Source: Promethearchaeota archaeon
GTDB taxonomy: Archaea; Asgardarchaeota; Lokiarchaeia; Sigyniarchaeales; SOKP01
NCBI GenBank assembly: GCA_016839705.1
Contig: JAEOTR010000016.1
Location: 54,819-118,818 of the forward strand
DNA length: 64,000 nucleotides
Reading direction: 5' to 3'
The position numbers were made by a program, and so were the translations under genes. The notes under the pieces were generated by a model, which worked only from the letters and a program-made list of their open reading frames with translations, ran no database searches and had not been told where the DNA came from. Positions within the stretch are counted from its first letter, which is position 1, and every line of letters begins with the position of its first letter. Below, one piece after another: positions 58,068 through 60,306 of the stretch.

Positions 58068-58634
58068 ATGAGTAAAATATCTTTAAGCCCGGGATACTCC
58101 ACTTTCCCTATGCCAGCAGCAGTTATTTCTGTGGGTACAGGAGATGAAGCCAATTTAATTACTCTTGCCTATGTTGGAAAAGTGTGCTCAAAACCACCAA
58201 TTATTGCTATATCTATACAACCGATACGTCACTCTTATCATATAATAGAAAAACTTGGAGAATTTGTAATCAATTACCCAACCATCAATCAGTTAAGAGA
58301 AATGGATTATTGTGGTACGAGATCTGGGAGAAATGTGAATAAATGGAAAGAGTTAAATTTAACAAAAGAAAAAGCATCAGTTGTAAGTGTGCCTTTAGTA
58401 AAGGAATTCCCTTGGAATATGGAATGCAAGGTTGTTAATAGAATAGAACTTGGTACTCATGTATGTTATTTTGGGGAAGTGGTGGCGGTTCATTCTGATG
58501 AAGAGTATGTTAAAAATGGTTCACTGGATCCTGACAAATTTAATTTTTTCGCTTATATTTCAGGTATCTATATTGCTTTGAATAAAGGAGCAATAGAAAG
58601 GCATGGATTTTCATTATCAAAACCTTTAGAATGA
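58068..58634 (+). CDS. Flavin reductase-like (flavoredoxin) FMN-binding protein
   Basis: PMPA, NLIT, RHSY, EFVIN, CGTRSGR and ECKV...GTH...GEV. Confidence 0.82.
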   Translation: MSKISLSPGYSTFPMPAAVISVGTGDEANLITLAYVGKVCSKPPIIAISIQPIRHSYHIIEKLGEFVINYPTINQLREMDYCGTRSGRNVNKWKELNLTKEKASVVSVPLVKEFPWNMECKVVNRIELGTHVCYFGEVVAVHSDEEYVKNGSLDPDKFNFFAYISGIYIALNKGAIERHGFSLSKPLE

Positions 58635-58647
58635 TCTCTATAATTAT

Positions 58648-59202
58648 TTGAATAATAAAGTTAGAAGAATTATGTCTAAAAGTAATATCGCGCTAATTGG
58701 GTTTATGGCAACAGGGAAAACTACAGTAGGGAAGGCACTGGTAGATTATCTAGGAAGCCCATACTCCTTCATTGAAACAGACCAAATAATAATAGAGAAT
58801 GTTGGAAAGGATATCCCAAAGATTTTTGCAGAAGAAGGTGAAAATAAATTTCGGGAATATGAAATATCTGCATGTAAACAAGTTTCCTTATTAAAAAATG
58901 TTGTGATTTCATGCGGGGGTGGCGTTGTGTTAAACAAGGTAAATATTGATAATCTAAAGAAGAATTGCTATATTATGTTATTAAAAGCATCGACCCAAGA
59001 GATATACACTAGAGCTATGAAGGATGGAAAGGAAACTAGACCTATTATTAATAAAGAAGATCCCAAAAGTGAAATAGAGGATGTTCTAAAATTCCGGAAT
59101 CCCTTATACAATAGTGCTGCAGATTTTGTTATTGAAACAACTGGTAAGAAAATTAGTGATATTGTTATAGAGATTGTTAAAAAAACCCATCTAAAAACCT
59201 AA
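58648..59202 (+). CDS. aroK: Shikimate kinase, bacterial NMP-kinase type
   Basis: IGFMATGKTTVG, GE-x2-FREYE, SCGGG, RP and R-x-PLY. Confidence 0.9.
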   Translation: MNNKVRRIMSKSNIALIGFMATGKTTVGKALVDYLGSPYSFIETDQIIIENVGKDIPKIFAEEGENKFREYEISACKQVSLLKNVVISCGGGVVLNKVNIDNLKKNCYIMLLKASTQEIYTRAMKDGKETRPIINKEDPKSEIEDVLKFRNPLYNSAADFVIETTGKKISDIVIEIVKKTHLKT

Positions 59203-59258
59203 ATTTAAATTTATAAAGCCTACTAATATTGTATAAAACATGGTTAAGAGTAAAGATT

Positions 59259-59467
59259 ATGACGGAATATAAAAGGACTAAATGCCCAAAATGTAACAAT
59301 GAGAATCCACGCATGCTCCATGATGAACCCGATAAGAGTAATATTCTTTACTACAGTATTGAAAACGTTATTTAAACTTTTCGCTGAAGCAGGGAACACC
59401 AGTTTATGCGCGAATCATAAAATGTGGCGATTGCGGAAACACATTTTCAAAATCTGCCCCAGCTTAA
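59259..59467 (+). CDS. Small zinc-ribbon protein (59 aa after splicing), two exons 59259-59359 and 59389-59467; not in the ORF track
   Basis: The joined sequence translates to MTEYKRTKCPKCNNENPRMLHDEPDKSNILYYSMQGTPVYARIIKCGDCGNTFSKSAPA*, with paired CPKC/CGDC. The unspliced frame stops at TAA 59373-59375 with only one CxxC. Confidence 0.75.
59360..59388 (+). other. Candidate 29-nt bulge-helix-bulge (tRNA-type) intron in a protein-coding gene
   Basis: Central 4-bp helix CAGU(59354-57)/GCUG(59383-86). 3-nt bulges AUU(59358-60) and AAG(59387-89). Intron stem GAAAA/UUUUC plus GUU/AAC. Cleavage after the second bulge nucleotide on each side gives AT|G and restores the frame. Confidence 0.7.
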
Positions 59468-59526
59468 CATTCTAAAAAAAGATTACTCTTTCTTTTTTTA
59501 ATTCTTATTTATTTAAGTGAAAGAAG

Positions 59527-60279
59527 CTAAATGCTAAGATTTAACAGGTTCAGAATTTCTCTTAATTTAGTAATACTTATTTGACCTGATGCCGTTTTTT
59601 CTAAATAGGAACCATATGTTAAGAAAGACTTGCTAAAATTGCACAAAATTCTTGACAATAGTCCCACTTCACCCATGCAAAAGGAGATTAATCTTAATTT
59701 TTTACTTGATTTTATTTTGCATAATTGTAAAGGAATTAAATTATCCTCAAAAGATTGAGCTGTAAATATAAGTTTGAAAATGCCTTTTTCTACAATCTTT
59801 TGATCAATTTGAACGTTTTGTTTCAACTTTTTCAAAGAATCTTCTAAAATTTCAACTGCTACATCGTAAGTAGGAGTTTTTTCAAAATCGTGAAGAGAAA
59901 ATATTAGGTTTACCTTATTATGTGATGCTAAGCGAATTATTTCACTTAAAATACTACTTTCAGTATTAATTTCAATATCAAGATATCTTGGCTCTGATTC
60001 AATTATAATTTTTATTATTTGAAGTCGCTTACTGACTTCAATTTCTATCTGTCCACCTTCAGAGTAATCTCTAAAAGTACAGATCACGGGAATTTTTGGT
60101 TGAATTCGATTTATTAGATCAATTATAAAATCTTTAGTAATTTTTTGGATATCGGAAATATAATCAAATCTTAGTTCGATAAAGTCGGGATTAAGAATTA
60201 TAACTTTTTCAATAGTTGGGGCGATCTCGCTGACCACTACAGATTTAATTGGGATTGGTACACAAATATTGTACTTCAT
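59527..60279 (-). CDS. aroD: Type I 3-dehydroquinate dehydratase
   Basis: ICVP, ELRFD, TFR-x3-EGG, DIE, S-x-HDF-x-KTP, K, MGE-x-G-x2-SR and TASGQ. Confidence 0.88.
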   Translation of the reverse strand: MKYNICVPIPIKSVVVSEIAPTIEKVIILNPDFIELRFDYISDIQKITKDFIIDLINRIQPKIPVICTFRDYSEGGQIEIEVSKRLQIIKIIIESEPRYLDIEINTESSILSEIIRLASHNKVNLIFSLHDFEKTPTYDVAVEILEDSLKKLKQNVQIDQKIVEKGIFKLIFTAQSFEDNLIPLQLCKIKSSKKLRLISFCMGEVGLLSRILCNFSKSFLTYGSYLEKTASGQISITKLREILNLLNLSI

Positions 60280-60306
60280 AGTAAGAAATTAATTTCCTAA
60301 TAAAAA

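Follow-up and report, generated by a model that had tools for sequence, protein, structure and literature searches.

The window analysed here, a stretch of 64,000 nucleotides (nt) from a Promethearchaeota archaeon (contig JAEOTR010000016.1, positions 54,819 to 118,818 of the forward strand), carries a short gene whose reading frame is broken by 29 nt; all positions below are those of the window. We conclude with high confidence that these 29 nt, at 59360-59388, represent a bulge-helix-bulge (BHB) intron of the archaeal type, a kind normally excised from tRNAs and very rare in protein-coding genes; it interrupts the coding region of a small C4 zinc-ribbon gene, and it is comparative data that argue for its splicing. 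When the exons are joined without 59360-59388, the gene, at 59259-59467 on the plus strand, encodes a C4 zinc-ribbon protein of 59 amino acids (aa).

The frame that opens at the ATG at 59259 (plus strand) encodes MTEYKRTKCPKC...ILYYS, continues as IENVI and is halted by a TAA at 59373-59375, while the frame lying one base back stays open between 59363 and its stop at 59465-59467 and ends ...KQGTPVYARIIKCGDCGNTFSKSAPA. Exon 1 (59259-59359) begins at an ATG that orthologues share, runs for 33 codons through the first CxxC knuckle to LYYS and ends on AT, the first two bases of a Met codon; exon 2 (59389-59467) supplies the G that completes this codon, followed by 25 codons, from QGTPVY through the second CxxC, and a TAA. 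Both exons and the intron between them lie on the plus strand, and the intron shifts the frame such that an unspliced reading ends at the TAA at 59373. An earlier note on this DNA had described two out-of-frame halves of a zinc-ribbon gene between aroK and aroD; we confirmed both frames, and the neighbours match PF01202 and PF01487. Its further suggestion, that the DNA belongs to a probable Asgard archaeon, agrees with near-identical proteins that are named as coming from a Promethearchaeota, Promethearchaeia or Candidatus Lokiarchaeota archaeon.

We searched the genomes of relatives with both gene halves separately, then fetched and read the loci. An orthologue was present in 49 of 54 genomes of the genus (E <= 1e-8); the shikimate kinase gene adjoins the zinc-ribbon gene in nearly all of the 3-kb loci of the genus, and this conserved neighbour confirms that the loci are orthologous. 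The 29-nt insert occupies the identical site in 35 of the 49, between AG(T/C)-AT and G-CA(G/A)-GG and with the same relation between the frames, whereas the gene is continuous at this site in the remaining 14. In the other genera of the order, 12 of the 24 genomes matched were examined, and their orthologues are continuous without exception.

Uninterrupted orthologues place the junction to the base. As the earlier note had anticipated, they read through the predicted junction, as ...Y(Y/F)(S/N/A)-M-QG(T/S)P(V/I)(Y/F)... in 26 of 26 cases; in an alignment of 25 of them, M35, Q36 and G37 are invariant, and the relative left out of that alignment (genome G029) reads alike at the site. AGT-ATG-CAG is recreated only by removing exactly 59360-59388; read by eye, a shift of one base to either side would give Ile or Lys instead of Met. 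A gene tree was built from an exon alignment of 58 rows and 159 columns, without genomes G015, G016 and G029 because these have extra inserts. Intron-bearing genes cluster on it, and their distribution requires three changes or more, a number as low being reached in 0 of 500 shuffles; the gene is too short for the tree to separate one gain from a gain plus a loss.

The insert and its flanks fold into the core of a BHB. The central helix is formed by CAGU of exon 1 (59354-59357) with GCUG of the intron (59383-59386), a pairing found both by covariation and by RNAalifold. It is flanked by the triplets AU^U (59358-59360), an exact 3-nt bulge with the predicted cut after 59359, and AA^G (59387-59389), with the predicted cut after 59388. 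The intron hairpin occupies 59361-59382, where GAAAAcGUU (59361-59369) pairs with AACUUUUC (59375-59382), leaving C59366 bulged and a loop at 59370-59374. A possible outer helix between the exons would pair 59344-59349 with 59391-59396, an arrangement that appears when the 69-nt region is folded to minimum energy and also in the register given by RNAalifold. All of these elements lie on the plus strand, and the insert, the CAGU/GCUG helix, the two triplets and the hairpin were found at the very positions that the earlier note had given for them. The 3' cut-site triplet sits in an internal loop rather than in a clean 3-nt bulge; the motif is therefore of the relaxed HBh'/BHL (bulge-helix-loop) form and not strict hBHBh', again as the earlier note had proposed.

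Such a core is rare. Counted as a 4-bp helix plus at least five contiguous intron-stem pairs, with 3-nt bulges and the length fixed at 29, it occurs at a frequency of 2.5e-4 of all positions in the organism's own genome. Because the core is this rare and the junction is set independently by homology, their coincidence is unlikely to have arisen by chance, which upholds the same point made in the earlier note.

Covariation across the 35 inserts supports the same structure. In an alignment of the inserts with 20 nt of exon on each side, the BHB core is paired in 93.8% of cells and its central helix in 99.3%; here CG changes to UG or UA, and UG to UA or CG, each of which keeps the pairing. The intron hairpin shows compensatory double changes in seven of its eight pairs. 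Over the whole core, both sides have changed in 8 of 12 pairs against a shuffled mean of 4.0, the observed score being reached by none of 500 shuffles, and sliding the partners by one to three columns makes pairing fall to 15-48%. The covariation that the earlier note had predicted is thus present in both the intron stem and the central helix. RNAalifold, run unguided, recovers these same two elements, and both are present in 23 of the 35 individual minimum-energy folds; the BHB-constrained fold averages 2.2 kcal/mol above the minimum over the 35 sequences. The stem of the clade to which the window belongs, GAAAAcGUU/AACUUUUC, differs from that in most of the genus, AGGUAAAGCU/AGCCUACC, and an A-U to G-C double change in the stem separates the genome carrying the window (G000) from its two nearest relatives.

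The positions of the cuts follow from a simple geometric rule. For the introns of cbf5, the splicing endonuclease EndA is stated to cut between the second and third bulge residues (excerpts of PMC2738675). Cuts after the second bulge nucleotide here would rebuild the ATG that all 25 aligned uninterrupted orthologues have at this point, and the same rule puts the introns of the genome's two tRNA-Ser(CGA) genes at the canonical position 37/38, one base past the anticodon. The genome encodes an EndA with both Pfam domains (G000:C56:35901-36491; 97.8 bits) and the ligase RtcB (564 bits). The best solved relatives of this EndA are 3p1z_B and 3ajv_B, catalytic chains of crenarchaeal EndAs that we take to be heterotetramers. 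Of the 54 genomes of the genus, 44 encode two or more EndA paralogues, and both of the closest relatives are among them. In the sections of PMC5829648 that bear on this, Asgard EndA is reported as (alpha-beta)2 with a broad-specificity loop, and relaxed motifs are reported to require a two-subunit or epsilon-type endonuclease.

In the mechanism that we propose, CAGU of the exon would pair with GCUG of the intron in the pre-mRNA to make the 4-bp central helix, with the 8-bp intron hairpin stacked on one side of it. On each strand, the cut would fall two nucleotides past the 3' end of the central helix, within a clean 3-nt bulge at the 5' site and within an internal loop at the 3' site; there EndA, of the two-subunit, crenarchaeal-like type in this genus, would cut at AU^U and AA^G. 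Ligation of the exons by RtcB would then rebuild the ATG and restore the frame, giving the 59-aa protein with both CxxC knuckles; unspliced RNA would yield only a 38-aa fragment with a single knuckle. EndA cleavage and RtcB ligation at this locus are both steps that we infer.

Broken frames in short genes of draft genomes usually point to a decaying pseudogene or, in a metagenome-derived genome, to a sequencing or assembly error. We find either scarcely credible here: the 29-nt insert is present in 35 separate species-level genomes, which excludes an assembly artefact, a possibility that the earlier note had raised; the frame of exon 1 is otherwise intact in all of them, and that of exon 2 is unbroken in 33. 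The two exceptions, G015 and G016, carry extra inserts that themselves fold as BHB or BHB-like motifs. Nor does the gene evolve as a pseudogene would. Leaving these two genomes out, the median ratio of non-synonymous to synonymous substitution rates (dN/dS) in the 33 intron-bearing species is 0.077 over 53 codons, with dS at about 1.2. Taken separately, exon 1 has a ratio of the corresponding proportions of differences (pN/pS) of 0.14 and exon 2 one of 0.17, indicating that both exons are under purifying selection, and mean divergence is lower in the intron than at synonymous sites (0.23 vs 0.62).

Selection on both halves bears equally on a second explanation, in which the exon-1 frame alone would be expressed as a one-knuckle peptide of 38-53 aa and exon 2 would be an untranslated remnant. 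Gene callers would indeed call the exon-1 frame alone, and the window offers exon 2 no separate start codon: read by eye, its frame has no ATG, GTG or TTG upstream of the second CxxC. The residues past the junction, however, are variable and the frame stops at differing places, while exon 2 keeps its low pN/pS despite near-saturated synonymous sites and the second CxxC is retained in all 33 intron-bearing species whose exon 2 is uninterrupted. Purifying selection on both halves excludes an exon 2 that is never translated as well as a pseudogene, and we consider the expression of exon 1 alone most unlikely.

Across the 25 aligned uninterrupted orthologues of the protein, C10, C13, C47 and C50 are invariant, and the 33 intron-bearing species keep these cysteines too; the two CxxC knuckles that they form lie on a beta-hairpin scaffold, as expected of a C4 zinc ribbon. 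An AlphaFold2 model (predicted local distance difference test, pLDDT, 78) has three strands, with the intron site in a beta-hairpin turn. No match at cut-off in Pfam, NCBIfam or a protein atlas indicates a function, the sub-threshold matches being to generic zinc ribbons only, and the best Foldseek match against solved structures reaches only E 0.33. One source names members of the family (P0007, P0012, P0029 and others) 'ribosomal protein S27AE'. We found this identity unsupported: the best of 25 members matches the NCBIfam S27ae model PRK00432.1 at E 0.00059, and member 1 reaches 16.7 bits where the cut-off is 54; since these scores lie so far below the cut-off, the label is probably an annotation artefact. 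Among 118 comparable database proteins there was no ready-made spliced product, the best of them agreeing with the exons of an intron-bearing species at 49 of 53 residues.

In three relatives within the genus, exon 2 of the gene carries other inserts. In G029 (L045:378-437, plus strand), the first intron is absent and a different, 32-nt insert lies a few codons downstream in exon 2; it is a textbook BHB, with a UUAU/AUAA central helix, 3-nt bulges and an 8-bp stem. G015 (L041:273-331, minus strand) has the first intron and, 46 nt downstream, a 31-nt insert after CCAGTAT, that is, after the same exon hexamer, CAGTAT. The two G015 introns are alike in 24 of 29 columns, an alignment equalled in 0 of 2,000 shuffles, and the second was found by a covariance model at 28.7 bits; it looks like a copied or transposed first intron, and suggests that the intron may spread to sites able to form its exon-intron helix. 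In G016 (L008:1637-1694, plus strand), an in-frame 30-nt insert with a TAA in exon 2 has a weaker, AU-only, BHB-like motif with uncertain borders, and is probably an intron. With the insert of G029, G015 or G016 removed, the sequence, read by eye, resembles the PVY....KCG stretch of the orthologues.

At least four insert sites are therefore found in one tiny gene across the genus, and the unrelated BHB or BHB-like inserts of G029 and G016 lie within a few bases of the second site of G015. Retention of the first intron in 35 species goes back far enough for synonymous sites to have become saturated. It is possible, though less likely than not, that mini-introns spliced by EndA and RtcB are still being gained in this protein-coding gene, spreading for instance by reverse splicing into sites with which the intron can pair, and that their splicing is an obligatory and possibly a regulated step in making the protein.

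Several findings weigh against splicing, or against its generality. In the structure, the 3' site is part of a 4x4 internal loop and would be buried by an alternative pairing (alignment columns 12-13 with 49-50). The outer helix has two competing registers, and its sole covarying pair (columns 6/56) is also complementary in 7 of 14 uninterrupted genes of the genus; as similar complementarity is common in uninterrupted genes, this helix is weakly supported. A fold of 81 nt (59335-59415) lacks the BHB motif (z = -1.7), whereas a 69-nt fold centred on the insert shows it. Among the enzymes, no second EndA paralogue was found in this 93%-complete assembly, either with PF01974 and PF02778 at E <= 10 or by tblastn with the first subunit; the missing subunit is probably on an unassembled or unbinned piece.

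The intron also appears to be alone in its genome. Its covariance model finds no other convincing copy in the organism's own genome; over 54 genomes of the genus it returns the first intron at all 35 loci, the second one in G015, and weak matches of which those examined proved false. Six orthologous weak matches of 20-29 bits (G000:C82:8842-8879 on the minus strand, L081, L083, L085, L086 and L087) were set aside as look-alikes because they run antisense to a continuous, conserved open reading frame (ORF), and at another (G028:C62) an open frame, translated by eye, reads straight through on the strand of the match. The earlier note had also proposed that further frame-breaking inserts bounded by BHB motifs might be found by scanning the genome. 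Our scan for BHB-bounded inserts of 18-100 nt that rescue an ORF, with parallel pairing as decoy, gave no excess at any ORF-length threshold (16,694 candidates vs 16,124 for the decoy), nor did it once candidates with nearby start codons were removed (573 vs 577); five top candidates translate to serine- and proline-rich sequence resembling antisense frames. The scan recovers the known intron, yet its power is low and a few further cases could escape it. As there is no excess over the decoy, the zinc-ribbon gene may be an isolated case in this genome.

The last adverse point is that, in all 35 loci, the frame of exon 2 has already opened by the time that of exon 1 reaches its stop. With the frames overlapping throughout, stop codons alone cannot exclude frameshifting, which is the only serious rival to splicing: a programmed -1 ribosomal frameshift, or other recoding such as bypassing, within the 29 nt would give a protein about 10 residues longer with no splicing at all, and the conserved hairpin could act as its stimulator. 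Other features of the loci speak against this. No X_XXY_YYZ slippery heptamer occurs in the productive zone of any of the 35 loci, the stretch in which a -1 shift could connect both frames, and this zone lies inside the hairpin rather than upstream of it. For bypassing, a by-eye look at the junction, without computation, revealed no take-off and landing codons that match. A recoded protein would be without the Met found in every one of the 25 aligned uninterrupted orthologues and would have about 10 additional, variable residues in a beta-hairpin turn, and recoding would give no role to the 4-bp helix between exon and intron or to the precise geometry of the BHB. Recoding is thus very unlikely, in our view, and we retain a spliced BHB intron as the explanation of the 29 nt.

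The zinc-ribbon gene sits directly behind the shikimate kinase gene (58648-59202, plus strand; PF01202, E 5.9e-39), and a type I dehydroquinase gene (PF01487) follows it on the opposite strand. No Rfam family matches 58600-60300 at E <= 1, and a promoter and terminator scan restricted to bacterial types, with archaeal promoters outside its range, gave nothing above chance. About 40 nt upstream of the zinc-ribbon ATG, at 59210-59217, lies TTTATAAA, possibly a TATA box of archaeal type; if so, the small gene would have a promoter of its own downstream of aroK. Elsewhere in the 3.36-Mb, 93%-complete genome, ARAGORN lists only 27 tRNA genes, 12 of them with introns, a count in keeping with reports that introns abound in the tRNA genes of Asgard archaea and that standard tools overlook many of these genes.

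The closest known system is the cbf5 pre-mRNA intron of Crenarchaeota, reportedly described by Watanabe et al. in 2002. The likeness extends to several features. The cbf5 introns of Desulfurococcales and Sulfolobales, at 16-44 bp, are short and lie inside the coding sequence, as does the 29-nt intron here; their BHB is unconventional or relaxed, with a cut between the second and third bulge residues that agrees with the exon borders; they occur in lineages with hetero-oligomeric EndA; and their presence among relatives is patchy, implying gain and loss (all from excerpts of Yokobori et al. 2009, PMC2738675). The differences lie in the host gene, here a zinc ribbon of about 57-59 aa rather than cbf5, and in the phylum, Asgard/Promethearchaeota rather than Crenarchaeota; the cbf5 of this genome is itself uninterrupted, one open frame without stops matching positions 5-319 of 322 of TIGR00425. 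Here there are, moreover, the several insert sites in one tiny gene, one insert being a near copy of another. For cbf5, EndA-dependent cleavage is reported, together with spliced cDNA from five species that agrees with the predictions and is cited as unpublished (PMC2738675, in excerpt), whereas splicing of the intron here is predicted by comparing gene sequences.

The non-canonical HBh'-type tRNA introns of Asgard and TACK archaea share the motif, the geometry and the presumed enzymes (parts of PMC5829648 and of 10.64898/2026.10.13.758758), and the genome's own tRNA-Ser(CGA) introns follow the same cut rule. They differ in that the host here is an mRNA, so that intron removal must also restore the reading frame, and the covariance model of the 29-nt intron finds no tRNA-borne relative in the genome. 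The main text of the 2026 preprint on Asgard tRNA introns is without the word mRNA (10.64898/2026.10.13.758758). HVO_1309 of Haloferax volcanii likewise provides an mRNA as EndA substrate, one in which removal seems to matter for expression; its BHB intron, in contrast, is in the 5' untranslated region (UTR) and leaves the coding sequence uninterrupted (excerpts of PMC7714728).

A more distant parallel, which the earlier note had drawn along with its conjecture that splicing may gate expression of the zinc-ribbon protein, is with XBP1/HAC1, in which a short, frame-shifting mRNA intron is cut by a protein endonuclease without a spliceosome and, in animals, the exons are ligated by an RtcB-type ligase. 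The endonuclease there is IRE1, which recognises twin stem-loops and not a BHB, and the splicing is stress-regulated. The parallel goes no further than the presumed RtcB-type ligation step and the shift of frame. Unconventional splicing of this XBP1/HAC1 kind is mentioned in a passage of PMC13149111.

A 2020 study, in the part of its text that treats the matter, gave cbf5 as the only BHB intron reported in archaeal mRNA besides its own 5'-UTR case (PMC7714728). In the full-text literature that we searched, which leaves supplements and subscription journals outside, cbf5 of Crenarchaeota is the one archaeal gene known to have its coding sequence interrupted by a BHB intron, and there was no report of a coding-sequence BHB intron in Asgard archaea. 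What appears to be new here is a second host gene and a new phylum for such an intron, and the apparent repeated gains in one gene would be unusual.

Finding another host gene among the archaea most closely related to eukaryotes would mean that protein-only splicing of mRNA is not a crenarchaeal oddity. The predictions are sharp: one junction, one peptide and one 29-nt circle. With 35 intron-bearing and 14 intron-free orthologues, a single genus offers a natural set for following intron gain, copying and loss. Gene callers truncate the zinc-ribbon gene, and small proteins similarly split would for that reason be missing from Asgard proteomes. If mini-introns of this kind are indeed still being gained, the spread of BHB introns in mRNA would be occurring in the closest prokaryotic relatives of eukaryotes.

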